DNA of 41,247 bases from an uncultured Eubacteriales bacterium (lineage in GTDB: Bacteria > Bacillota > Clostridia > DSM-8532 > CAYYEC01): assembly GCA_964470745.1 (NCBI GenBank), contig CAYYEC010000001.1, positions 1 through 41,247 of the forward strand, written 5' to 3'. Made by a program: the position numbers and the translations under genes. Of this stretch, positions 3,443-41,158 are shown piece by piece; within the stretch, counting starts at the first letter, position 1, and each line of letters starts with the position of its first letter. Below the pieces are notes generated by a model. The model saw only the letters and a list, made by a program, of their open reading frames with translations. It was not told the origin of the DNA and made no database searches.

Positions 3443-5377
3443 ATGAAAAATCATGATATTTCAAGTTTAATTAAGAAGGATAGAGAAGAAAGAAAAACTT
3501 CAGATTTTGAAGGGACTTTTATGGACTATGTTAATATAGTTAAAGAAAATCCTCATGTAGCGATATTAGCCCATCAGAGAATGTATGAATTAATTAACAA
3601 TCCTGGAGTGGAGATAATCAAAACAGATGAGAATCCCAGATTGAGAAGAATTTACGGAAATGACACCATAAAAAAATACAATTTCTTTTCGGATAATTTT
3701 TATGGGATAGATAAAACTATAATGAAAATTGCCAGATATTTTCACTCGGCCGCTATGGCGGGAGAAGAGGCAAGACAAGTGTTATATCTAGTTGGGCCAG
3801 TTGGTGCAGGGAAATCGTCTTTAATGGAGGCTTTGAAAAGTGCATTAGAGGAAAGTGAGCCAATATATGCATTAAAGGGATGCCCTATTAGAGAGGAACC
3901 TCTTCACTTAGTTCCTAAACACTTAAGAAAAGAATTTGAAGAGATATTGGATGTTAAAATTGAAGGAGATTTATGTCCAGTTTGCCGCTATAAGCTAAAG
4001 AATGAATATAAAGGAGAATATGAAGAATTTCCCGTTGAGCAGGTGGATTTTTCAATTAGGTCCAGGAAAGGTATAGGAGTGGTTCCTCCTGTTGATCCAA
4101 ACAATCAAGATACATCTGTGCTAATAGGTTCAGTTGATATTTCTAAAATTGACTTGTATGCAGAAGATGACCCAAGAGTATTATCTTTAAATGGAGCTTT
4201 TAATGTAGGTAACAGAGGAATTGTTGAATTTATTGAAGTATTTAAAAATGAAACTGAATATCTTCATACTATGATTACAGCAACACAAGAGAAGTCAATA
4301 CCCTCTCCCGGTAAAGGCTCAATGATTTATTTTGATGGAATAATTCTAGCTCATTCCAATGAGTCGGAATGGAATAAATTTAAATCTGACCACACAAATG
4401 AGGCTATACTGGATAGAATAGTGAAAATTGAAATTCCTTACTGTCTGGAATTAAATGAGGAAATTAAAATCTATAAAAAAATCCTTAAAAAGAGTAAGTT
4501 TGATGCTCATATTGCTCCTCATACCATTGAAGTTGCATCTATGTTTGCTATATTGTCAAGACTTACTCCGTCAAATAAGGTTGACCCAATGACAAAATTA
4601 AAAATTTATAATGGTGAAGAGATTATTGAAAAAGGTATGACAAGAAAAATAGACATTTTTGAGTTAAAGGATGAAGTAGCTTCCATGAGAGAGGGTATGA
4701 CTGGAATATCTACAAGGTTTATTATGAAAGCTCTTGATACAGCGCTGTCTGAATCTGAACATGATTGTATAAACCCTATTTCAATTATGGAGACATTGGT
4801 AAAGGCAGTAAAAGATATGTCTTTAAGTGAGGAAGAGGGAGTAAGATACTTAAGATTTATACAGGATTCAATAAAGAAGGAATATAATAAAATACTTGAA
4901 AAAGAGATAACAAAAGCATTTATTCATGGTTATAGAGAGCAGGCTGAAAGTCTTTTTAACAATTATCTGGATCATGCTGAGGCATTTGTGAATAAGACTA
5001 AGATAAAGGATAAAAACACTGGTGAAGAACTGGAGCCGGATGAAAAGTTCTTGAGATCAATAGAAGAACAAATTGGGATTTCAGGAACTGCAGCTAAAGG
5101 TTTTAGATCCGATGTTACAGCATATATGTTCTATGTGCTTCGAAACGGTGGAAAACTTGATTTTAATAGCTATGAACCTCTTAAAGAAGCAATTGAAAAG
5201 AAATTGACTGCTTCAGTTAGAGAGTTGAGCAGAATTATTACTTTAACAAAGGTAAGAGATAAGGAGCAAAATGAAAAATTTAATGCAATGGTTGAAGAAA
5301 TGAAGAAGAATGGATATTGTGATCACTGCTGTAATGTTGTATTGAAATATGCCGCTAATAATTTGTGGAAAGATTAG
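3443..5377 (+). CDS. prkA: PrkA-family serine protein kinase (AAA+/Lon-like)
   Basis: 644 aa with Walker A LVGPVGAGKSS. It has full-length PrkA/YeaG character and sits with yhbH and spoVR. Confidence 0.9.
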   Translation: MKNHDISSLIKKDREERKTSDFEGTFMDYVNIVKENPHVAILAHQRMYELINNPGVEIIKTDENPRLRRIYGNDTIKKYNFFSDNFYGIDKTIMKIARYFHSAAMAGEEARQVLYLVGPVGAGKSSLMEALKSALEESEPIYALKGCPIREEPLHLVPKHLRKEFEEILDVKIEGDLCPVCRYKLKNEYKGEYEEFPVEQVDFSIRSRKGIGVVPPVDPNNQDTSVLIGSVDISKIDLYAEDDPRVLSLNGAFNVGNRGIVEFIEVFKNETEYLHTMITATQEKSIPSPGKGSMIYFDGIILAHSNESEWNKFKSDHTNEAILDRIVKIEIPYCLELNEEIKIYKKILKKSKFDAHIAPHTIEVASMFAILSRLTPSNKVDPMTKLKIYNGEEIIEKGMTRKIDIFELKDEVASMREGMTGISTRFIMKALDTALSESEHDCINPISIMETLVKAVKDMSLSEEEGVRYLRFIQDSIKKEYNKILEKEITKAFIHGYREQAESLFNNYLDHAEAFVNKTKIKDKNTGEELEPDEKFLRSIEEQIGISGTAAKGFRSDVTAYMFYVLRNGGKLDFNSYEPLKEAIEKKLTASVRELSRIITLTKVRDKEQNEKFNAMVEEMKKNGYCDHCCNVVLKYAANNLWKD

Positions 5378-5380
5378 GTT

Positions 5381-5455
5381 GAGATTGAGCTTGAGTATAT
5401 TATCACACGAAGTGTGATTATACAAATCTTAATCTTAATCTGCACCAAAGGTGCA
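5381..5455 (+). other. Structured intercistronic element (long imperfect hairpin plus small SD-proximal hairpin) between prkA and yhbH
   Basis: 5382-5395 pairs with 5428-5441 (11 WC, 2 GU, 1 mismatch). This encloses the hairpin ATCACAC-GAA-GTGTGAT (5402-5418). TGCACC-AAA-GGTGCA follows at 5441-5455, just before the SD GGAGGTG. Confidence 0.55.
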
Positions 5456-5472
5456 CATGGAGGTGAATTGAG

Positions 5473-6687
5473 ATGGCTATTTTTAAGGAATTTAATGCAG
5501 AGAAGAATGACCGAAGTGCTGAGGATAGAAGAAGACATCGACAATTGGTTGAAGAGTCTATAAAAAAAAATATAACTGATATCATTGCAGAAGAAAGCAT
5601 TATTGGACAAAGCAAGAACAAGAAAATAAAAATACCAATAAAGAGCATTAAAGAGTACCAATTTATATATGGTAAAAATTCAGGTGGAGTTGGCTCTGGG
5701 GATGGAAGTGAAAAACGAGGAGACAAAGTTGGAGAAGATGGTTCTGGAAAAAGTGGTAAAGGAAAAGGACAGGCAGGAAATGATGAAGGAGAAGATATAT
5801 ACGAAACAGAGATTACGCTTGAGGAATTAATAAATTATTTATTTGAAGATTTGGATTTACCTGACATTGATAAAAAGAAGATGGCAGAAATAGAATCAAC
5901 AAAGAGCCATAGGAATCTTGGATACCAAAGAAAAGGAATCCCACCAAGGTTAGCAAAGAAACGATCTGTAATAGAAAAAATCAAAAGAAAACAAGCATAT
6001 AAGAGATCTCATGATTTAAACAATGATGTAGAAGAGAATAACTCCACGGGCTTGGAATTGGAACAAGATAATGATAAAAGATTTCCATTTAGTGAGGATG
6101 ATTTAAGATATAAGAGATTAAAGGAAACCCGTAAGAAAGAGTTTAATGCAGTAGTTATATGTATAATGGATGTCTCTGGTTCAATGGATCAAACCAAAAA
6201 GTACATGGCCAGAAGTTTTTATTTTATGTTATATCAATGGATACGTACAAAATATACAAATGTTGAGGTAGTGTTTGTATCTCATACAACAGTTGCAAAA
6301 GAAGTTAATGAACAAGAATTTTTTCATAAGGGAGAGTCAGGAGGTACCTATATAAGTAGTGGCTATGAAAAGGCTCTGGAAATAATTGAGCAAAGGTATA
6401 ACCCTGTTTCATGGAACATTTACGCATTTCATTGCAGTGATGGGGATAACTGGTCGGAAGATAATAAAAAGGCAGTTGAGTCTGCTCAGAAGCTTTGTGA
6501 GGTATGTAATCTTTTTGGATATGGAGAGATTATTTCCGGCTATTATTTTTCAACCAGCACTATTAAAACCGAATTCCAAAAGAATATTAATAATAAAAAT
6601 TTTGCAGTAATAACTATGACTAAGAAAGAAGATATATTTCCAGGATTGAAAAAGCTGCTGGAAAAAGAAGGTGAGAAAGGGAATTGA
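5473..6687 (+). CDS. yhbH: YhbH/YeaH-family protein (DUF444, vWA-like), sporulation/stress associated
   Basis: 404 aa with a glycine/charged linker, then a vWA-like MIDAS motif (IMDVSGSM). It sits between prkA and spoVR. Confidence 0.85.
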   Translation: MAIFKEFNAEKNDRSAEDRRRHRQLVEESIKKNITDIIAEESIIGQSKNKKIKIPIKSIKEYQFIYGKNSGGVGSGDGSEKRGDKVGEDGSGKSGKGKGQAGNDEGEDIYETEITLEELINYLFEDLDLPDIDKKKMAEIESTKSHRNLGYQRKGIPPRLAKKRSVIEKIKRKQAYKRSHDLNNDVEENNSTGLELEQDNDKRFPFSEDDLRYKRLKETRKKEFNAVVICIMDVSGSMDQTKKYMARSFYFMLYQWIRTKYTNVEVVFVSHTTVAKEVNEQEFFHKGESGGTYISSGYEKALEIIEQRYNPVSWNIYAFHCSDGDNWSEDNKKAVESAQKLCEVCNLFGYGEIISGYYFSTSTIKTEFQKNINNKNFAVITMTKKEDIFPGLKKLLEKEGEKGN

Positions 6688-6732
6688 GAATGTAGAATTA
6701 TTTTTCTCTTTCTGTTTTTGTAGAGGATAAGG

Positions 6733-6802
6733 TTGAGGCTAAGAATTTAAGCAATTATTATTTAAATAATAATTTATTTTTGTATCTTAATCTTAATCTC
6801 AA
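6733..6802 (+). other. Second copy of the structured intercistronic element (yhbH-spoVR gap)
   Basis: TTGAGGCTAAGAATTTAAG (6733-6751) pairs with CTTAATCTTAATCTCAA (6786-6802). Between them is the perfect AT palindrome AATTATTATTTAAATAATAATT (6753-6774). Confidence 0.5.
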
Positions 6803-6829
6803 TTCTCAATTAAACTGGGGGTGTTGCTA

Positions 6830-8218
6830 ATGGCTGACTATAGTATAAATGAACTTAAAATGTGGAATGAGAAAGTTGAGGAAATAGCCCGGGAAGTGGG
6901 GCTTGATTATTATGAACAGGAATTTGAAATATGTGATTATGAAGATATGATTGGTTATGAAACGTATATAGGTATGCCTTCTCACTATCCGCACTGGAGT
7001 TTTGGGAAATCATATGAAAAAACAAAGACTCTTCATAGATATAATCTGTCAGGCTTGCCGTATGAGATGGTAATAAATTCAGACCCATGTATAGCATACT
7101 TAATGAAGGATAATACATTACTGTTGCAAATATTAACAATAGCACATGTTTATGGTCATAATGACTTTTTTAAGAATAATAGGTTGTTTAAAACTGGAAC
7201 AAGAGCCGGATATACTATTGAAACATTTAAAAATCATGCAAATAGAATAAGAGAATATATAGCTGATCCTACTATAGGTTATGAAAAAGTAGAAAAGATA
7301 CTAAATGCTGCTCATGCTCTAAAGCTTCAAACAAATAGAACTATTGGAGAGAAAAGATTGTCAACAGAAGAACTATTTGAGCGCAAGTTAGAGAACTTAA
7401 AAAAACCTGAAAGTGAATATCCTTTGTTAGAACTTAAAAAAACTAAGGAAGATATTCCAATAAATCTTAAAAAAATCCCAATTGAACCAGAAGAGGATAT
7501 ATTATTTTTTATATCCAGCTATGGAAGATTGAATGATTGGGAAAAAGATATTTTAGATATAGTAAGAGAGGAGACATCTTACTTTATTCCTCAAATGGAA
7601 ACAAAAATAATGAATGAAGGATGGGCAAGTTTTTGGCATTATAATATTCTAAAGAAGCTTGGACTTCCTCAGGGCTTGCATATAGAATTTTTAAAAAGAC
7701 ATAATCAGGTTATTAGACCACATTCGGGTAATATTAATCCTTATTTTGTAGGGTTTAAAATATTTGAAGATTTATATAAAGAGGGGGAAGGTATTAAGAA
7801 GATTTTTGAAGTAAGAGAAAATGAAAGAGACAATTCATTTTTGAGAAGATATCTTACCTACGATTTATGTAATGATATGAATTTGTTTGAGTATGTGAAA
7901 AGTGGAAAGGACTATATTGTATCTGAAGTGTCTGATGAAGAAGGATGGAAGAAAGTACGAGATTCTTTAGCAAATAGTGTTGGATTGGGTTCCGTACCAG
8001 TAATTAAAGTCATTGAATATGTTCAAAAGGATAATACCCTGATTTTAGAACATGAATATACAGGAAGAGAGCTTGAATTAAGCTATACCTATGAAACTTT
8101 AAAGCATATTGTTGATTTGTGGGATGGAAAGGTTATGCTGGATACTGTGCTGGATGAAAAGAGAAAGATTATTATGTGCGATGAGAACAAAAAGATTTCT
8201 ATGGTCAATGGTGAGTGA
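6830..8218 (+). CDS. spoVR: Stage V sporulation protein R (SpoVR/YcgB family)
   Basis: SpoVR-type motifs are present (HYPHWSFGK, AHVYGHNDFFKNN, NEGWASFWH). Start moved to the ATG at 6830, 7 nt after GGGGGTG. Confidence 0.9.
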   Translation: MADYSINELKMWNEKVEEIAREVGLDYYEQEFEICDYEDMIGYETYIGMPSHYPHWSFGKSYEKTKTLHRYNLSGLPYEMVINSDPCIAYLMKDNTLLLQILTIAHVYGHNDFFKNNRLFKTGTRAGYTIETFKNHANRIREYIADPTIGYEKVEKILNAAHALKLQTNRTIGEKRLSTEELFERKLENLKKPESEYPLLELKKTKEDIPINLKKIPIEPEEDILFFISSYGRLNDWEKDILDIVREETSYFIPQMETKIMNEGWASFWHYNILKKLGLPQGLHIEFLKRHNQVIRPHSGNINPYFVGFKIFEDLYKEGEGIKKIFEVRENERDNSFLRRYLTYDLCNDMNLFEYVKSGKDYIVSEVSDEEGWKKVRDSLANSVGLGSVPVIKVIEYVQKDNTLILEHEYTGRELELSYTYETLKHIVDLWDGKVMLDTVLDEKRKIIMCDENKKISMVNGE

Positions 8219-32084: not shown

Positions 32085-32242
32085 AGAAACAAGAGGACGG
32101 TTCGAGACCACTGAAAAACACTTCCTAAAAATTTACACCATACTATATCTTGTAGAAATGATATAAGTATAACCACAACATATATAGTGTAATTTTTTGA
32201 AATAGAACTTTTTCAGCAGTCTCGAACCGTCTCATTGTTTTC
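32085..32242. repeat. Imperfect ~33-bp inverted repeat pair flanking ~90 nt (MITE/IS-end-like)
   Basis: GAGAAACAAGAGGACGGTTCGAGACCACTGAAAAA (32085-32119) versus the reverse complement of 32209-32242, GAAAACAATGAGACGGTTCGAGACTGCTGAAAAA. Confidence 0.6.
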
Positions 32243-32413: not shown

Positions 32414-32635
32414 TTAATGGGGTAATATATTTACTTCCTTATAATTTAGCAGTTTGTTTATGTCTGCAACTTTATTAATTGTATTTATATTGACGAAGTG
32501 TTTAAAATTCCAGCTTACAATATAATCTATGTTTATAGCTGTAGCTAGTGCAATATGTCTCAGATCATCCTTACTTTTTTCCTTTAGTACAACGTCTAAA
32601 TAGGAAAAACGACTTTGACAAATTAATCCAAAATG
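32414..32635 (-). pseudogene. PIN-like toxin C-terminal fragment (no start codon)
   Basis: My own translation of the minus strand gives ...DDLRHIALATAINIDYIVSWNFKHFVNINTINKV...ILPH*. The D.lHiA.A...d.lvsWNfKH pattern fits a PIN-fold TA toxin family. Confidence 0.4.
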
Positions 32636-32639
32636 TTAC

Positions 32640-32985
32640 AATAGAAATAAGAAAGAAAAAACAGGAAATTAAGAATTATTCTAGGCAGCTTGCCAGAGGA
32701 ATGATTAATGAAGATATATTTGATGAGATGGTATCAGAAGCTAATCAGCAGTTGGAGAAGCAAGGGAAGTACTTACGGAAGCTTGAGCAGCAAAATGAGA
32801 GCTGTGAAAATGAAAAGGAATACCTTGTGAATAGTATTGAAGTCATTGAGGACATATTGCAGAATAATAAGCTGACTAATGCGGATATTGTAAACCTGAT
32901 TGATGACATTACCATATGGGAGACCGATGAGATTGGAGTTTATGGTAAGAAGAAGGTAAGGGTTGATATTGGGTGGAGAATATAA
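32640..32985 (+). pseudogene. Large serine recombinase C-terminal fragment (coiled-coil + DUF4368-like tail)
   Basis: Coiled-coil ...QQLEKQGKYLRKLEQQNE..., then LTNADIVNLIDDITIWETDE...KKVRVDIGWRI. No resolvase catalytic domain is present. Confidence 0.5.
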
Positions 32986-34025: not shown

Positions 34026-34052
34026 TCAAAAAAACCACCAAATTGGTGGTTT
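34026..34052 (-). terminator. Rho-independent terminator (minus strand) directly after the tRNA-like 3' end
   Basis: The minus strand reads ACCACCA-ATT-TGGTGGT followed by TTTTTTT. Confidence 0.75.
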
Positions 34053-34056
34053 CAAT

Positions 34057-34115
34057 TGGCACGAGTGATGGGACTTGAAGCCATACGTCGTAGACACACG
34101 CCCCTCATGGTGGGG
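34057..34115 (-). pseudogene. tRNA 3'-half fragment (T-arm, acceptor 3' strand, CCA; no matching 5' half)
   Basis: The minus strand reads ...CCCCACCATGAGGGG...ATGGCTTCAAGTCCCATCACTCGTGCCA. This has a TTCAAGT T-loop and an encoded CCA. The T-stem has a mismatch and no complementary acceptor 5' strand lies upstream. Confidence 0.45.
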
Positions 34116-34333: not shown

Positions 34334-34828
34334 ATGTGTATTAATGAAAAAATAGTTGAGATGCTTAAAAAGAACAAGTTATTGATTAGTACTATGGAAA
34401 GTTGTACAGGTGGTAATATTCTTAATCAAATTACAAATATTGAAGGTGCATCTAGGATCACAAATGGAGGGTTTGTTACTTATAGTAATCAACAAAAGAT
34501 AAAAATGGGAGTTTCTAAAGAAGTTATTGAAAAGTATGGTGTATATAGTCCAGAATGTGCTCGTGCAATGGCTAATGCGGCTTTGAATAATATTGTTTCG
34601 GATATAGGTATTGGTGTTACAGGTACATTTAGTAATCTTGACACTGATAACCTAAATAGTAATTTAGGGTTAATATTTTATTGTATAAGTTATAGTAATC
34701 GTATTAATAGAGTAAACAAGAGAATTAGTGAAGGACAAATTCAAGTGCCAAATATGCATAGGCATTTACAAAAACAATATGTTACAGATGTAATATTTAA
34801 TAGTCTATATGATTTACTCAGATATTAA
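34334..34828 (+). CDS. CinA C-terminal domain / PncC-like nicotinamide-nucleotide amidohydrolase
   Basis: LISTMESCTGGNILNQITNIEGASRITNGGFVTYSNQQKIKMGVS...GVYSPECARAMANAA follows the ESCTGG...GG.VTYSN..K...LGV...GAVS...A..MA signature of PncC/CinA-C. 164 aa. Confidence 0.8.
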   Translation: MCINEKIVEMLKKNKLLISTMESCTGGNILNQITNIEGASRITNGGFVTYSNQQKIKMGVSKEVIEKYGVYSPECARAMANAALNNIVSDIGIGVTGTFSNLDTDNLNSNLGLIFYCISYSNRINRVNKRISEGQIQVPNMHRHLQKQYVTDVIFNSLYDLLRY

Positions 34829-34915
34829 GTTGATTAATATTTTTTTAGAACTGAAAATTTTGCTTAAGGTATCAAATTTTCTTTGAGCTTAAATAAGTTT
34901 TGGGGGATAGTTTGT

Positions 34916-35710
34916 ATGAATAAAAAAAATCAAATAACTATAGTAATGCTATTAGGAATTTTAATACTTATAATTTCATTTTTTCTAAAAGAAAAAACTA
35001 TGTCTTTTGAAAGTTTCATCTTTCAAGCATTGTTTAATATTGCCTTTGTTTTAATAACTATTGCTTTAGTAAATGTCATTTGGGGCTTACTTGGAGGAGA
35101 ACCTTTAGAAAAAATGTTAGATGGATTGCGAAGCTCCATAAAACTGCTAGGGGATAGTACAGAAAGTGGTATTACTAGATTTTTGTATGCTAATGATAGA
35201 TATACTAGCAAAGATTGGCATGAAATTTTATGTAGAAGCAAATACAAGATAGATTTACTTGGCTATACATTGAATACTTGGTCGCGAATTGAGGGATTTG
35301 AAGAAGAACTAATAAATAGGGTTAAAGCAGGTGTAAAAATAAGGGTACTCTTTATGGATGAGAAAAATCCATTTTTAAATGCAAACATAAATTATGAACA
35401 AATCAAATCATTAAGCGTACCCATTGTTGAAAATGAGATATATTCTTCGACTGATTTTTTTTCTGATATAATGAAAAGATCAGTAGGTGAGAAAGGAGTT
35501 AAAGGTTCATTTGAAATGAGAAAAGTTAAGAAAGGTCTTATAATGAGTCAAATATGCATTTTTGATGATACATCGATAATAACACCATATTTGCACTCTG
35601 TAACAACACCACATAGTCCTCTTATTATAATAAAAGGACAGGAAAGTAGAGTGTTTAAAAAGTATCAGAAAGAGTTTGATTCATTTTGGGAATTAAATAA
35701 TAATAGATAA
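34916..35710 (+). CDS. 2TM membrane protein with C-terminal PLD-fold-like (DUF5919-like) domain lacking HKD
   Basis: Two hydrophobic helices (ITIVMLLGILILIISFFL; FNIAFVLITIALVNVIWGLLG). The soluble domain has KIDLLGYTLNTW / VKIRVLFMDEKNP / ICIFDDTSIITPYLH strands. ATG at 34916, 8 nt after GGGGGA. Confidence 0.55.
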   Translation: MNKKNQITIVMLLGILILIISFFLKEKTMSFESFIFQALFNIAFVLITIALVNVIWGLLGGEPLEKMLDGLRSSIKLLGDSTESGITRFLYANDRYTSKDWHEILCRSKYKIDLLGYTLNTWSRIEGFEEELINRVKAGVKIRVLFMDEKNPFLNANINYEQIKSLSVPIVENEIYSSTDFFSDIMKRSVGEKGVKGSFEMRKVKKGLIMSQICIFDDTSIITPYLHSVTTPHSPLIIIKGQESRVFKKYQKEFDSFWELNNNR

Positions 35711-35810
35711 AGAATACAATTTATCTATTATTGATCTTTAATTTGGATGAAGATGTTGACAAACGTTTATTACAGTTCTGTGTGAATGGTAAAATTATGG
35801 AGTTATAAAA

Positions 35811-38444
35811 ATGAGAAAGATTAGTATAGGAGATATAATCAGAATATTACTCAAGACATTTGAATTATATGATCAGCATAAAAAAATAGTTTATAGTTAC
35901 TTATTGATGGGATGTAATTTAAAAATTACATTAACTATGAATTCAGAATACAAAATACTAAAACAATTATATGGGTTACTAAGTTATAGAAACGTAGATA
36001 GCATAAAAAGAACATTCGAAAGATATAGTATTGAGACTAAGTTTGATGATAAAGGCAATGCCATTTATAATACATATAATTTACTAGATATTTGGGATAA
36101 TCTCGGTAAAAAGTATTTAATTTTTAAGGATAATGTATATATTAATATTTTGAACTTTGAAGAGTGGAAAAGGTATTTCCATGCTCTTGATGAAGATTTA
36201 ATTGTATTAAATCATTTAGTTAAGCAAAGATATTCATGTAAAAAGCCAGAAATTTCAAATATAAGCCAATTTGTATTTAAAATGAAGACATTTATTACGC
36301 CTTACGAACCAAAATTAAAGGCAATATTGAATAGAGGGGTAGGAATTCAGCATTTACATTTGTCAGGTAGCTATCCGGCCCCATATCTTTGGGTAGCGTT
36401 AATGAATAATAGAATTATTAACATGGATATTTTCAATTCCAGTAATTTTGATGAAGCAATAAAATACAATAATATTGAGAATATAGCTGTATTATGTAAA
36501 ATGATTAATATGGCAAGAATAATTCGTCTATGTTTGTTTGAATATATTATAGCTTATATAAAAAATGGCTTTAAAGTAGAAAATAGGAATTCGGAAAAAA
36601 TGAGTATACTATTAAGTGAGCTCTCGAAGAATATTAATCACTCTGGAGACTATTTTTATGAGATCTATCAAGATATCAATATTAAAATCTGCGAATTGAA
36701 AGCCAATCATAGAGACTATGCTTTCACACTGAGCTTTATAGATGATGATAATTGCCGTATTGTTTCCAAGTCATTAGTCGGAGAACGATTAATACTTTTT
36801 TACGTTTTATATTTAATTAATGATAGTAGTTTTCAAGATAATGAAATTTTGTCAAAATTGATTTGGATATATATACAAGCTAAAAATTCTTTCCTCTGCA
36901 AAGTTCAACAGGAAGAAGGGATATCGGGGATAGATTTTTTTGAATATACATTAAAGGCTGTAGTATGGAGTTATGATGAAGATCATGAATTCTGTAAAGA
37001 GATAGGAGAATTCTTACAAGAGACACAATCTGTTATAAAAGCTGAACTAATGATTTCGCCTCAAAGTAGCTTAGTTGATTATGATAAAAAATTAAAACAG
37101 ATATCAATTATAAGAGATAGTATGAGAGCGAGTCTTTGTGAAAAGTTAAAACAAGAATATCAAGACGTTAAAATTGGTGTAATAGTACATTTCAAAAAGG
37201 ATGACGAGGTTTATTTAAGCAAACGTATTTCAAGTAGTAATGATTCTTATAAAATCTCTCACTTTCAAAAAAGAGATGTAAATATACAAGATTGTAACAT
37301 GCTAATTAGATATAAAAAAGAAACCAATACGTTTGAAAAAAATAATAATATGCCAATTGTAGCAATTGATGCAACAAGTAAAGAAGTTTATTGTTCTCCT
37401 GAAATATTTAGCGAAGCTTATAATTTATTATTTGGCTATAATAATAATATAGAATCAGGGTTTAAGTTGGTTGGTAGAACATTTCATGTGGGTGAGGAAT
37501 ATATTTCATTAGCTACAGGTTTAAGAAGAATATATGAAGCTATCTGCTTCCTAGGCTTAGAAAAAGGAGATAGACTGGGGCATTGTATTGCACTAGGGGT
37601 AGACTCCAAATTATGGGTATATGATAATCCCCAAATAGATATGAGTTTAATAGATTTATTAGATGATTATGTTTTTGAGTGGCACTTGTTAAAAAATAAT
37701 TATAATTATGATTTTAAAAACAGAATTAATGAAATTGAAATGAGGATAGCTAAATATTCTAAACAAGTTTTTGGAGTACCAATCTATCCGACAATATTAT
37801 TTTCAGCGTGGCAATTGAGAGGGAATATCTCACATAACTTGGCATGTAATTTTGATGACGATAATACAATTCCTTATTGGATTAAACTGCAAGGGAAAAT
37901 TATGGAGTGCTCATCAGTTTCTGGCACACATCAGGCTATACCCAGTCTAGATGCGCTTTTGAGTATAGCTGATAAATACAATATTATTTATGACAAATTG
38001 AAAGTTGAACTGCCTTGCAGTATTGAGGAAAGAATTTTGCATGAATACTTGTATGATAAACATACAAATGAGTCTTTTATTCAAAGGGTATCTATTGATA
38101 CAGTTAAAGAGGCTGTTCACTTAAAAAATATTCAAGATATAGTAGCTGATTTTTTATATGATAGAGGTATTAGTATAGAATCTAATCCAACATCAAATTG
38201 GTTAATTGGAGGATTTGAGAAATTTTATGATATACCCTGTGTTCAGTGGATTATTAATAAATCAAGTTTTGCTTTTTCGCTAAACATTGATGATCCTACT
38301 GCATTTGGGAATTCAGTTGAGAATGAATATTATTTAGTATATTCAAGTATTCGGAAATGTATAGAGAATATGATATCTGAAGATGTAGCTTTAAAAAAGA
38401 TTAACGAAATTAGATTAAACTCAATTAAATTAAGTTTTATATAA
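35811..38444 (+). CDS. Large (877 aa) adenosine/AMP-deaminase-fold metallohydrolase with N-terminal extension and two large insertions
   Basis: Ordered signatures: HLH (aa 181-183), HVGE (559-562), GH (591), ESNPTSN (790-796), NIDDP (825-829). GGAG SD lies 9 nt upstream. Confidence 0.8.
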   Translation: MRKISIGDIIRILLKTFELYDQHKKIVYSYLLMGCNLKITLTMNSEYKILKQLYGLLSYRNVDSIKRTFERYSIETKFDDKGNAIYNTYNLLDIWDNLGKKYLIFKDNVYINILNFEEWKRYFHALDEDLIVLNHLVKQRYSCKKPEISNISQFVFKMKTFITPYEPKLKAILNRGVGIQHLHLSGSYPAPYLWVALMNNRIINMDIFNSSNFDEAIKYNNIENIAVLCKMINMARIIRLCLFEYIIAYIKNGFKVENRNSEKMSILLSELSKNINHSGDYFYEIYQDINIKICELKANHRDYAFTLSFIDDDNCRIVSKSLVGERLILFYVLYLINDSSFQDNEILSKLIWIYIQAKNSFLCKVQQEEGISGIDFFEYTLKAVVWSYDEDHEFCKEIGEFLQETQSVIKAELMISPQSSLVDYDKKLKQISIIRDSMRASLCEKLKQEYQDVKIGVIVHFKKDDEVYLSKRISSSNDSYKISHFQKRDVNIQDCNMLIRYKKETNTFEKNNNMPIVAIDATSKEVYCSPEIFSEAYNLLFGYNNNIESGFKLVGRTFHVGEEYISLATGLRRIYEAICFLGLEKGDRLGHCIALGVDSKLWVYDNPQIDMSLIDLLDDYVFEWHLLKNNYNYDFKNRINEIEMRIAKYSKQVFGVPIYPTILFSAWQLRGNISHNLACNFDDDNTIPYWIKLQGKIMECSSVSGTHQAIPSLDALLSIADKYNIIYDKLKVELPCSIEERILHEYLYDKHTNESFIQRVSIDTVKEAVHLKNIQDIVADFLYDRGISIESNPTSNWLIGGFEKFYDIPCVQWIINKSSFAFSLNIDDPTAFGNSVENEYYLVYSSIRKCIENMISEDVALKKINEIRLNSIKLSFI

Positions 38445-38478
38445 CAATCAATAAAAGGTAAAGGTGTGAAAATTTAAA

Positions 38479-39015
38479 ATGATATTTAGTGAGAAGTGTG
38501 GAATGAAAAACAGTTGTAGAATCTTACTAGGACTCGATTGTAATTATAAGTGCGAATATTGCAGTAACAAGATACCAGGACTGATTGAAAAGTTTAAGTC
38601 AGTTTCAACCATAAGTGAAATTGGTATTTGCAGGTATGAAAACATCTGTATATCCGGTGGAGAACCTTTAATGAGTAAGTACATAAACGAATTGTGGGAG
38701 GTTATCACATTATCAAAATTAAACAAATGTAAAGTATTTATATATACAAATCTGAGTATATTACCTTCTAATGATATGATTGGTAAAGTAGATGGATGGA
38801 GTATTGGATTTCATGCTTTCCAAACCGAGACGTTAGGTTTTATAGACAGAGTTAATAAACTATTAAAAATGGGCGCAGATAATGTAAGAGTATTGGTGGA
38901 AAATATTGAAGCAAGCAAATTAGCAGTTTTTTTGCCTAACAATATAATAAAACCTTGGATTCGTAATGATTGTGACAAAACTAACATAGAAGATTGGTAT
39001 ATTTTAGATAAATAA
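38479..39015 (+). CDS. Minimal radical SAM protein (NrdG/QueE-sized, about 170-178 aa)
   Basis: CNYKCEYC (C21/C25/C28, CX3CX2C) and the SAM-binding ISGGEPL motif. There is no C-terminal SPASM or other extension. Confidence 0.7.
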   Translation: MIFSEKCGMKNSCRILLGLDCNYKCEYCSNKIPGLIEKFKSVSTISEIGICRYENICISGGEPLMSKYINELWEVITLSKLNKCKVFIYTNLSILPSNDMIGKVDGWSIGFHAFQTETLGFIDRVNKLLKMGADNVRVLVENIEASKLAVFLPNNIIKPWIRNDCDKTNIEDWYILDK

Positions 39016-39054
39016 TATTAGCAAGTTTTAAATTTCTATTTTAAGGAGTAATTT

Positions 39055-40122
39055 GTGTATAATGTAGGTGCTATTATTGGATTATTTTCTTTTCCTCATA
39101 AAGGGCATTTAAATGCCATTTTAAAGGCTAGTACTTATTGTGAGGAGTTATATGTTGTAATAATAAGTAATGATTTTATGGAAGAACAACTATATAAAAA
39201 TATAGCTATAAAAAGATTAACTATGAAAGAAAAGGCAAGATGTTTATCTTTTGAACTTAATGGATTTGATCATATAAAAATATTAATGATAGAAACTAAT
39301 GATGTTACAGTAAAAAATCTAAATTTAGAAATAGTTCTCAAAAAGATAACCGGCTTATTAAACAAAGATGTAGATGTAATATTTAATTGTGAATTAGAAA
39401 ATAAAGAAATTTTCAATTGCCACTCTATTGATAGTAAACTAGAAGTATTTAACGCTGATTATGTGATGATAACGATACATACATCGAATGTGTTAAATAA
39501 TATTTATATGAACTGGGATTTGGTTTTAGGATCTTTACGCGCATATTATGCAAAAAAAGTAGTTTTCGTAGGTACTGAAAGTTGTGGTAAAACAACACTT
39601 GTAAAAATGCTTGCAAAATTATTTAATACTACTTATGCAGAAGAAGCAGGCAGGTATTATGCTTCAAAATATATGGGCGGAAATGAGAATGTATTTATGT
39701 TGAGAGATTTTTATAATATTGCAATTGAGCAAAGACAGTTAGAAGAAAATGCATTACTATGTGCTAACAAAATTTCATTCTTTGATACTGATTTAGTAGT
39801 TACACAGCTTTATTGCAAACTCTTTACTGGTGAATACAATCCTGATATTGAACCTTTAATTGATAAATACAGATATGATATGGTTGTTTTCTTAGAACCT
39901 GATACAAAGTGGGTAGCTGATGGAATTAGATTTGCGGATAATCAGTCTAAGAGAGTTAAATATTCAGAGCAACTGAAAAAGTTGTATAGCTATTATGGCT
40001 ATGGAGAAAGATTAGTGGTAATAAGCGGCTCTTATAATGAAAAACTCAGTAAATGTGTTGAAATAAGCAAAAATTTATTATTAGAGAATAACATTAGAAA
40101 TGTAGTTTCTAAGTTTTTATAG
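39055..40122 (+). CDS. NadR-like bifunctional protein (NMN adenylyltransferase-like + ribosylnicotinamide kinase-like P-loop domain), no N-terminal HTH
   Basis: PHKGH (HxGH) at aa 14-18. Walker A VGTESCGKTTLVKMLAKLFNTTYAEEAGR, then FFDTDLVVTQ and KWVADGIRF, as in NadR RNK domains. GTG start 7 nt after AAGGAG. Confidence 0.8.
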   Translation: MYNVGAIIGLFSFPHKGHLNAILKASTYCEELYVVIISNDFMEEQLYKNIAIKRLTMKEKARCLSFELNGFDHIKILMIETNDVTVKNLNLEIVLKKITGLLNKDVDVIFNCELENKEIFNCHSIDSKLEVFNADYVMITIHTSNVLNNIYMNWDLVLGSLRAYYAKKVVFVGTESCGKTTLVKMLAKLFNTTYAEEAGRYYASKYMGGNENVFMLRDFYNIAIEQRQLEENALLCANKISFFDTDLVVTQLYCKLFTGEYNPDIEPLIDKYRYDMVVFLEPDTKWVADGIRFADNQSKRVKYSEQLKKLYSYYGYGERLVVISGSYNEKLSKCVEISKNLLLENNIRNVVSKFL

Positions 40123-40381
40123 AATTTACTATTAGAAATTGGATTATTTTTTTTCAAACCGTTTATTTTATAAGGGATATTAAATGGTAATATTTATAAA
40201 GGAATTATATAAAACTGCTATTTTGTTGAGTACTGTGTGTTTTTGGCAGATTGCAAGCTAATATTCAGATACAAGATGGAATGGAAACTGAAACATAAAT
40301 TTTGTTAAAAGAAAGCTAATTCTGGACTTCATTGATATGAAAAACAATATTATCAAGCCATTATTTATTTGGAGGTTTTTT

Positions 40382-41158
40382 ATGGATGTTAAAGAAGAGT
40401 TATTCGGAGAAAACTATCTGTTTACACGTGAAGATGTTTTAAAGTCATTAGAGTTATTTATTGAACACGAAAAATTAAATGAAGAGCCTGGGTATTCAAA
40501 TGAAGTTGTAAAAAACAGAGTAAAGCTTTGTCAAAAATTTCATGCAGCTATAAAGAAATGTAAACTTCCGGTTTTGACAGAACTTTGGTGGTTCTATGAA
40601 TATCAGTTTTTAGGAAATAGTATGGAGTTGAATCTATGTCAGGCTGATGAGATTGAAGTTGAAAATGATGAAATTAATGGTATGATCTCAACCGTGGAAC
40701 ACACTTTAATAAAGGTCGAATGTGATTATATTTCTGTTGAACAATATGCCTCCATGCTTGATATTGAGCCTGTTACGGTCAGGCAATGGATTAGGCGTGG
40801 GAAATTAAGACATGCAAAAAAGAATGGACGCGATTGGTTGATTCCCAATACTGAAGATAAGCCACGGCGTGGTTTTACCAGTGTGCAGTATATAGTAGAA
40901 AAAGAAGCCCAAATTGAAAGTGATGAATTCCCGTTGCTATCAACATGCAATTCAATATTGATCTTGCAAGATCAAGAGAATAAAAGCAAATTCATTTGTT
41001 ACCTCAATAATTATAAAACTAAATTCTGCAGTGAGCTTGAACTGACAAGAAGTGAAGTTGAACGGCTAGAACATACTATTATTGAATCTGGAAAAGCGCG
41101 GGTTGAAGGGAATATACAATACGTCCCTTATATTAGAGATAATGATGGTAGATATTAA
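40382..41158 (+). CDS. Excisionase-type HTH (HTH_17) domain protein with unknown N- and C-terminal regions
   Basis: ISVEQYASMLDIEPVTVRQWIRRGKLRHAKKNGRDWLIP. ATG at 40382 lies 7 nt after GGAGG; the longer ORF start at 40337 lacks an SD. Confidence 0.65.
   Translation: MDVKEELFGENYLFTREDVLKSLELFIEHEKLNEEPGYSNEVVKNRVKLCQKFHAAIKKCKLPVLTELWWFYEYQFLGNSMELNLCQADEIEVENDEINGMISTVEHTLIKVECDYISVEQYASMLDIEPVTVRQWIRRGKLRHAKKNGRDWLIPNTEDKPRRGFTSVQYIVEKEAQIESDEFPLLSTCNSILILQDQENKSKFICYLNNYKTKFCSELELTRSEVERLEHTIIESGKARVEGNIQYVPYIRDNDGRY

Follow-up and report, generated by a model that had tools for sequence, protein, structure and literature searches.

This study concerns the window, that is, the whole stretch of 41,247 nucleotides (nt) from an uncultured Eubacteriales bacterium (contig CAYYEC010000001.1), and its main finding is that the right-hand part of the window carries a cassette of five genes that resembles a rare and undescribed module, probably an antiviral one. 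The five open reading frames (ORFs) all lie on the + strand and are separated by gaps of 87, 100, 34 and 39 nt. In order, they encode a 164-aa protein of the PncC/CinA-C-like nicotinamide mononucleotide (NMN) deamidase family with a divergent C-terminal third (34334-34828), a 264-aa two-transmembrane (2TM) putative hub protein, which combines an N-terminal transmembrane hairpin with a soluble, non-HKD phospholipase D (PLD)-superfamily-like domain (34916-35710), an 877-aa adenosine-deaminase-fold protein of the RdrB type that comes without RdrA (35811-38444), a minimal radical S-adenosylmethionine (SAM) protein, hereafter mini-rSAM (38479-39015; 178 aa as an ORF), and a 355-aa bifunctional NadR-type enzyme that is free of a helix-turn-helix (HTH) domain and consists of NMN adenylyltransferase (NMNAT) and ribosylnicotinamide-kinase domains (39055-40122). 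A preliminary description of this DNA had proposed the same ORFs and spacings, and all five of its domain assignments hold in profile searches, the PLD-like call for the 2TM protein resting on a weak PLDc_2 signal. Shine-Dalgarno-like motifs precede the second, third and fifth genes, as had been noted by eye, and the first gene has one too. No + strand terminator-like site was found inside the cassette, while a promoter scan was uninformative, with 50 sites found vs 49 expected.

The gene content, the homologies, the conserved residues and the recurrence of two sub-modules at other loci can be observed directly. Judged from gene order, the cassette is the union of two such sub-modules, one made of the 2TM, RdrB-like and mini-rSAM genes and the other of the PncC, NMNAT and 2TM genes, with the 2TM gene common to both. 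The first is found at locus L014, where the closest relative of the 2TM protein (62% identity) is followed by an RdrB-like protein (37%, with the catalytic motifs kept) and a mini-rSAM protein (45%), in the same order as in the window. The three genes at L014 are 17 nt apart or overlapping. Because both flanks, 613 nt upstream and 321 nt downstream, are free of ORFs, the trio is self-contained at this locus, and because its order and tight coupling are kept despite divergence to 37-62% identity, as would be expected of an operon and not of neighbours in a rapidly shuffling island, it would seem to be a functional unit. The second sub-module is found at locus L052 (626-3245), in which a PncC gene (CinA 5.8e-52) is followed by an archaeal NadM-type NMNAT gene (228.8 bits vs a cut-off of 181.2; start and stop codons overlap) and then by a 2TM gene. 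This block has a GC content of 35-44% and abuts a second nadM copy of 59% GC that is 5'-truncated and frameshifted; it gives the impression of having been acquired and placed at or beside the resident nadM gene. Since the NMNAT that recurs with PncC beside the same hub belongs to a different family, NadM-type vs NadR-type, the arrangement suggests a functional link of the NAD pair to the 2TM protein, with non-orthologous displacement of the NMNAT. By a crude count based on two loci, about 100 neighbour slots would contain a pair of housekeeping-type genes of this kind by chance with a probability of about 1e-3. Thus, the expectation that the five genes co-travel fails for the whole set, but stands for the two sub-modules.

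The 2TM protein is shared further with a third kind of partner. In L015 (1171-2818) and in L017 (8001-9642, from a Lachnospiraceae metagenome-assembled genome), the 2TM gene overlaps a gene for a true prokaryotic viperin (pVip) that directly follows it, and the overlap indicates that the two genes are probably translationally coupled. The two pVips match PADLOC at 2.4e-35 and are 75% identical to each other. A survey of prokaryotic viperins (10.1101/2023.09.13.557418) reports kinase partners and mentions no membrane partner. About 25 distinct 2TM loci were found in all, and the other neighbours of the gene include a PhnN/guanylate-kinase-like protein, SIR2_2, DUF4062, an EAD11-protein kinase, an OLD-like ATPase, TIR-NACHT, SLFN/AlbA_2 and Imm51. 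FRG-domain proteins are encoded upstream of the 2TM gene at three loci (L045:406-1281, L051:1973-2575 and L017:6393-7307) and may be another recurrent partner. The 2TM protein itself shows exactly two hydrophobic segments, at about residues 7-24 and 34-58. Weak, sub-threshold matches to PLDc_2 are present in 15 of 23 family members and to DUF5919 in eight of them, no His or Lys is invariant across the 23, and the HxKxxxxD (HKD) motif is not matched. The soluble domain is probably a PLD-superfamily fold devoid of HKD chemistry, for which a binding or scaffolding role appears likelier than a phosphodiesterase role because the catalytic HKD residues are missing, and the positive-inside rule would place it on the cytoplasmic side. 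Neither Pfam nor PADLOC holds a model for the family, the match to PycTM in the PADLOC scan is not significant (E = 0.084), and profile searches of the PDB with the family gave at best E values of about 0.5-2 (TrmBL2, PLD). The AlphaFold2 model of the protein is poor, with a predicted local distance difference test score (pLDDT) of 52. No 2TM homologue was found in IMG/VR, by single-protein and alignment-based scans, nor in the plasmid collection.

The sequence comparisons identify the 877-aa protein as a true, nearly full-length but very distant RdrB homologue, so that the analogy first drawn with RdrB and Cad1 is upheld in this form. It matches the NCBIfam RdrB model at 9.4e-36 over model positions 50-770 of 850, with a score of 123.6 bits, which is under the cut-off of 800 and does not reach the curated equivalog level. 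The PADLOC RdrB model also matches it (3.7e-23), it is colinear with the RdrB structures 8fnv and 8fnw (1.3e-18), and the Pfam A_deaminase match (5.8e-10) covers the C-terminal part only. The protein falls below every metabolic adenosine deaminase (ADA) equivalog cut-off in NCBIfam, and Pfam, NCBIfam and PADLOC scans detect no CARF-type domain in it. The HxH, HxGE, GDRLGH and DDP catalytic motifs are retained, and the family alignment shows that H181, H183, H559, E562, H591 and D827/D828 are invariant across the clade; H181 and H183 had been singled out beforehand, along with K179 of the NadR-like protein, which proved invariant as well. Among about 5.8 billion clusters, a word-indexed search, which can overlook distant relatives, returned only about a dozen full-length relatives of 32-50% identity. 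When 1.84 billion representatives were searched exhaustively with HMMER, a clade of about 14 stood out with scores of at least 351 bits. The scores then drop to 294 bits, and from there downward extends a large RdrB-like superfamily, with 1,797 representatives at E <= 1e-30. Against the RdrB model, members of the clade score 98-130 bits and the distant matches P0013-15 score 171-187 bits.

The clade appears to be RdrA-less, because tblastn with three ATPase queries, the canonical RdrA and two that are RdrA-like, gave no match in the window or in any of the fetched loci; both the missing RdrA-like ATPase and the missing CARF domain agree with what had been read from the translations. The gene upstream of the window deaminase encodes the 264-aa 2TM protein and not an AAA+ ATPase. 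In the wider superfamily, the gene directly before the deaminase is RdrA in the canonical RADAR system of pVSAL840, and on B. cereus and Cetobacterium plasmids RdrB-like genes directly follow genes for RdrA-like proteins that exceed 1,000 aa. The latter two loci, on Bacillus cereus plasmid NZ_CP125990 (L063:907-7178) and Cetobacterium somerae plasmid NZ_CP092520 (L064:1432-7160), are divergent RADAR-like pairs of an RdrA-like protein of 1,178 or 1,027 aa and an RdrB-like protein, in which both genes are annotated as hypothetical only. Matches in the plasmid collection belong to the RdrB superfamily at a distance only, and alignment-based scans of IMG/VR did not detect the clade.

The mini-rSAM protein carries a Radical_SAM domain (4.6e-08) with the CxxxCxxC motif at C21/C25/C28, as originally described, but its start is probably not at 38479: because all homologues begin at the position of M9, the protein probably starts there (position 38503) and has 170 aa. 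Neither the cluster motif CNYKCEYC (CNYxCxYC in the family) nor GGEP varies among the homologues. AlphaFold2 gives a confident model (pLDDT 86, predicted TM-score 0.83), whose nearest folds are phage radical SAM proteins of about 179 aa, EpeE and PylB, with no specific fold assignment. The best sequence-profile matches are the pVip models of PADLOC (1.2e-11), while the NCBIfam viperin model gives 32.8 bits vs a cut-off of 180. We considered the possibility that the protein is a truncated viperin and rejected it, for only the universal N-terminal radical SAM core of about 80 residues aligns with pVips in hhalign and Foldseek, which gave a TM-score of about 0.5 and an E value of about 0.07 with viperin 6b4c, made no specific assignment. 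The word-indexed search found only three relatives, and a single-protein scan of IMG/VR found none.

Several features point to an inserted element at this site. The cassette has a GC content of 27.7-30.5% vs 32.1% for the 34 kb upstream, so that the greater AT-richness reported for it is real in direction and modest in size. On the minus strand at 34057-34115 there is a tRNA-like 3' fragment with T-arm, acceptor strand and CCA, whose reverse complement, read directly, ends in GGCTTCAAGTCCCATCACTCGTGCCA, and directly 3' of it, at 34031-34053 on the same strand, a terminator-like hairpin of a ten-pair stem followed by a T-run; the weak Rfam match there covers the hairpin only. The earlier assignment of a tRNA 3' end to this position gains some support from the tRNA-like end and the terminator, but neither ARAGORN nor Rfam calls the fragment, and scans of the whole window returned no Rfam family and no tRNA. 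A tRNA-gene remnant, and with it a putative att-site remnant at the left edge of an inserted element, is plausible because the hairpin adjoins the CCA-like end in the layout of a real tRNA gene 3' end. As the tRNA would lie on the minus strand, an inserted element would extend rightward, where the cassette starts. No att-like direct repeat of the fragment was found within the window, which probably stops short of the far end of the element. Beyond the NadR-like gene, at a distance of 214 nt, a 273-aa DNA-binding protein of the HTH_17/excisionase type is encoded on the + strand (40337-41158; Pfam HTH_17 3e-09, TIGR01764 excisionase domain 3.9e-07, PHROG excisionase and HTH families), in agreement with the preliminary description; we treat it as island context and not as a member of the cassette.

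Taken together, these observations lead us to favour, tentatively, the reading of the cassette as a modular conflict locus, most likely anti-phage, that would sit at the edge of an inserted element by the tRNA-like remnant and would have the 2TM protein as its membrane hub. We prefer this reading because of the operon-like layout, the trio in L014, the NAD pair in L052, the overlap of 2TM and pVip genes, the defence-type neighbours and the invariant deaminase residues, and because the 2TM family and the deaminase clade are both absent from IMG/VR, which argues that they are not viral. The defence role, the substrates and the direction of signalling that we infer would be as follows. The 2TM protein would be a membrane-anchored hub with a binding or scaffolding domain, served by two modules. 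In module A, the RdrA-less deaminase would convert ATP/dATP to inosine triphosphate (ITP)/dITP, as its homology and conserved zinc and catalytic residues suggest, and the mini-rSAM protein would either modify the nucleotide further or activate or modify a partner protein, which is the weakest step of the proposal. In module B, the NMN-deamidase-like protein and the HTH-less NadR would maintain the NMN/NAD+ pool or restore it, whether for self-protection during nucleotide poisoning or for setting a trigger threshold. The 2TM protein might then tether or regulate the enzymes at the membrane, or might be a membrane effector gated by their product.

A number of findings weigh against this reading, and many of them are what would be expected from its main rival, under which the cassette is a stack of mutually independent island genes that lie side by side on a mobile element and are transcribed together: standalone RdrB-like and 2TM defence genes, a phage-derived mini-rSAM and two NAD-salvage genes. 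The complete five-gene set was seen nowhere else among the approximately 5.8 billion clustered proteins, and each sub-module was found again just once. The contig of L052 is metagenomic and short, and its GC break leaves some chance that the assembly is chimeric. Seven of the nine distinct readable contexts of the deaminase clade, counted with clade members P0024-P0028 left out, have no cassette partner gene; since the metagenomic contigs are for the most part short, a missing neighbour says little, save at L014, where the flanks were read. The window deaminase is nearer to the standalone versions (about 50% identity) than to that of L014 (37%), and in a neighbour-joining tree the window and L014 deaminases are sisters in 7 of 200 bootstraps, the latter forming a long branch with a deletion. 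The 2TM gene is likewise alone in several loci, such as L047 and L048, and beside unrelated genes in many. The two mini-rSAM relatives that were examined (L010:985-1503 and L011:80-622; 39-47% identity) come from phage-like contigs, where they are surrounded by numerous small ORFs of the same direction, with RNase H and RtcB or YqeY, and have no partner genes nearby, and because these nearest relatives are on such contigs the family appears to pass between phages and the islands of cellular genomes; none of 23 viral mini-rSAM loci (24-44% identity, often partial) contains any other cassette gene. NadR-like genes are frequent phage auxiliary genes, with 430 phage records, and the 87- and 100-nt gaps could hold promoters. 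Against an independent stack stand the order and coupling of the L014 trio, which are kept at 37-62% identity, the 2TM-pVip overlap in two loci, the reappearance of PncC with an NMNAT of another family by a 2TM gene in L052, and the absence of a + strand terminator inside the cassette. We regard the stack as somewhat unlikely, although it survives better than any other alternative.

Most of the seven partner-less deaminase contexts are themselves defence-island or mobile-element settings. In L001 and L002 the gene is surrounded by HD-CE/HATPase, PLDc_2, HNH, KAP NTPase and NA37 genes, and in L003 (2724-8001) it is followed, after a 25-nt gap, by DUF6884 and then by SIR2_2 and a nucleoside 2-deoxyribosyltransferase-like (Nuc_deoxyribosyltransferase) protein. 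It is flanked by an McrBC-like pair and a 1,289-aa HD-CE protein in L005, has a protein kinase nearby in L006 and adjoins a resolvase and a transposase in L007-L009, while it stands alone in a Corallococcus chromosome (L004) and has neighbours without a Pfam match on the P0009 contig. Across the clade, the defence-type neighbours comprise McrBC-like, HD-CE, KAP NTPase, SIR2 and SLFN genes. The check on gene neighbourhoods suggested at the outset therefore places the homologues in defence-island-like or mobile contexts and not in housekeeping operons for purine or NAD metabolism. Two of these loci deserve a separate remark. The deaminase and SIR2_2 of L003 form a deaminase/NADase pairing similar to that of Kongming. 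In L007 (3374-6568), and also in L008 and L009, a 180-aa protein resembling the N-terminus of RecD2 (OB_YrrC/HHH) ends 24 nt before the deaminase gene, and the surroundings of the three loci include a serine resolvase gene and a Transposase_31 gene.

A second alternative concerns the two NAD-salvage genes, which may be an element-borne pair for NAD+ reconstitution or counter-defence, similar to NARP3, that would let the mobile element or its host survive NADase-type immunity and would be functionally separate from the deaminase trio. The NadR-like protein speaks for this, and its membership in a family with a demonstrated role in phage counter-defence also counts against our own reading. It matches NCBIfam PRK08099 with 219.8 bits (cut-off 201) over model positions 64-409, with the HTH domain missing, and phrog_3462 at 1.8e-70 over its full length, and its closest solved structure is that of the phage NARP3 protein Bas30_86 (PDB 9x6f, 4.3e-46). 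In phage Kirov, NadR is paired with PnuC, and the PncC-like protein also has a PHROG relative (2.8e-15). The proposal of an NAD-reconstitution module made in the preliminary description is to this extent supported, but for the NadR-like gene alone. The kinase half of the NadR-like protein is fully conserved, Walker A (K179) and DTD are kept, and HxGH is kept in the NMNAT half. The second nucleotidyltransferase signature of the protein (residues ~141-147), however, is IHTSNVL, not ISxTxxR, the same signature being ISATKLR or ISATEIR in phage NadR proteins and ISATMIR in 9x6f, and this degenerate motif suggests that the NMNAT activity or the preference for nucleoside triphosphates may be altered. 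A single-protein scan of IMG/VR with the NadR-like protein found no relatives. The PncC-like protein exceeds the cut-offs of Pfam CinA (5.9e-30; 104.4 bits vs 23.5) and TIGR00199 (93.9 bits vs 68.9), but scores 72.9 bits against a cut-off of 212 for NF002975 (nicotinamide-nucleotide amidase) and does not attain the equivalog level. Its ESCTGG and YSNxxK motifs, the Ser and Lys of which we take to be the catalytic residues, align to the CinA structure 2a9s, and its tblastn and PDB matches are confined to about residues 1-100, the last third being divergent. Besides the degenerate NMNAT signature, several points speak against such a pair: no PnuC was found in the cassette with Pfam, and the sole membrane protein of the cassette has two transmembrane segments, although the PnuC-type transporter is essential for NARP3; the two genes flank the trio and are not adjacent to each other; PncC and an NMNAT again lie beside a 2TM gene in L052; and the NARP3 paper mentions neither PncC nor a deamidase. 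We consider this alternative unlikely.

A third possibility is that the enzymes synthesize a signal, in which ITP from the deaminase would be joined to NMN or nicotinic acid mononucleotide (NaMN) by the NadR-like NMNAT with the help of PncC to give a deamino/deamido dinucleotide, or in which the mini-rSAM would make a didehydro-nucleotide, and that this product gates the 2TM effector. The 2TM soluble domain has no catalytic His or Lys and looks like a binding domain, the 2TM protein pairs alternately with pVip or with the deaminase and mini-rSAM, both of which are nucleotide makers, the altered second NMNAT motif could mean a changed nucleoside triphosphate preference, and dITP in Kongming provides a precedent for deaminated nucleotides as immune signals. 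On the other hand, L014 is without PncC and NadR and L052 without deaminase and rSAM, so that there is no single universal product, while the poor 2TM model gives no support to a ligand-binding fold and the idea is purely inferential. We judge it improbable. A related and more ambitious proposal, to which we also assign a low probability, is that of a multi-enzyme immune system in which a non-canonical purine/pyridine nucleotide, or the NMN/NAD+ ratio, gates a hitherto undescribed membrane family of 2TM PLD-fold proteins that also serves pVips. It is equally doubtful that the makers in such a system would be the deaminase and mini-rSAM, helped by an NMNAT of altered specificity and the NMN deamidase, and the same low confidence applies to its product, which might be, among others, a didehydro-nucleotide derived from ITP or a dinucleotide of the deamino-NAD type.

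That the five are ordinary housekeeping genes of purine or NAD metabolism is very improbable: PncC and NadR are classical NAD-salvage enzymes and the surrounding window is normal chromosome, but the cassette lies beyond the tRNA-like remnant with a GC content lower than that of the chromosome, its proteins are unique or very rare, their homologues are in defence or mobile contexts instead of conserved metabolic operons, and the deaminase is under all metabolic ADA equivalog cut-offs. The 34 kb upstream encode ordinary chromosomal functions, namely PrkA, SpoVR, an AI-2E transporter, LacI, an ABC solute-binding protein, AraC and BCCT. The prkA gene (PrkA AAA and C-terminal domains) and spoVR lie at 3443-8218, on either side of a 404-aa ORF (5473-6687), and their presence points to a spore-forming Firmicute as the host. 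Directly downstream of the BCCT transporter gene, at 32087-32240, there is a 32-nt inverted repeat with 84% complementarity and a 90-nt spacer. A 145-aa ORF at 32548-32985 has a weak match to DUF4368 (E = 0.011), a domain that is presumably the C-terminal part of large serine recombinases. This ORF may be what was earlier called mobile-element debris.

If the reading of the cassette as a modular conflict locus is right, RADAR-type deaminases would be able to work without the giant RdrA ATPase and with entirely different partners, and the 2TM proteins would form a new hub family of membrane proteins that partners also with prokaryotic viperins, SIR2 and NAD-salvage enzymes. NAD-salvage enzymes, so far known as phage counter-defence (NARP), would have been recruited into a host-side conflict locus, and the 2TM, deaminase and mini-rSAM genes would make up a compact three-gene unit that combines nucleotide deamination with radical chemistry in immunity. 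Should the multi-enzyme version hold, viperin products would gain a signalling or membrane-localised role in bacteria. An RdrA-less deaminase clade, a 2TM-viperin coupling and a recruitment of NAD-salvage enzymes would each be surprising.

PADLOC has RdrB and pVip models and no system of this composition, and the literature searched describes no RdrB/radical-SAM system, no membrane partner of prokaryotic viperins and no PncC or NMN deamidase in phage defence, in keeping with the initial statement that no such system was known. Among the closest known systems is RADAR, which is characterised by ATP/dATP to ITP/dITP conversion and a dodecameric assembly. The 877-aa protein is homologous to and colinear with RdrB over nearly its full length, with the catalytic motifs kept, and much of its clade is found among defence genes. 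In contrast to RADAR, which has RdrA, the window and the fetched loci of the clade are without it; a clear gap in scores sets the clade apart from the other superfamily members, and the partners of the window deaminase are the 2TM and mini-rSAM proteins. Cad1 of type III CRISPR systems carries a CARF sensor fused to its deaminase, whereas the 877-aa protein does not. The pVips and the mini-rSAM protein both carry the CxxxCxxC and GGE motifs, but pVips have about 260-300 aa, a full viperin core with the C-terminal substrate-binding part takes about 250-400 aa, and the mini-rSAM protein, at 170-178 aa, is without that C-terminal part. PycTM, Cap15 and SLATT/RdrD are small membrane effectors with an N-terminal transmembrane hairpin, and their genes lie beside those of nucleotide-modifying enzymes. 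The 2TM protein is like these effectors in size, hairpin and type of gene neighbour, but shows no significant similarity to them and has a soluble domain that is PLD-superfamily-like. NARP3 consists of a PnuC-like transporter with nine transmembrane helices (Bas30_87) and an HTH-less NadR (Bas30_86) and restores NAD+ depleted by Sir2-HerA, transport being essential. Bas30_86 and the NadR-like protein in the window are both HTH-less and bifunctional; the latter, however, has no PnuC partner, lies on a chromosomal island beside the deaminase trio and a PncC-like gene, and has a degenerate second NMNAT motif. Kongming comprises the adenosine deaminase KomA, the HAM1 protein KomB and the SIR2 protein KomC, and its dITP signal leads to NAD+ depletion. 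Both Kongming and the window link an adenosine-deaminase-fold enzyme to NAD+ metabolism, in Kongming in an immune context. They differ in that KomA is a small ADA and the window deaminase is of the RdrB type with 877 aa, in that the NAD gene of Kongming encodes an NADase and those of the window encode salvage enzymes (deamidase, kinase/NMNAT), and in that no Pfam match to HAM1 (PF01725) or SIR2 (PF13289) was found among the cassette proteins. Kongming, with no partner genes in common, is thus the nearest precedent in logic for the cassette.

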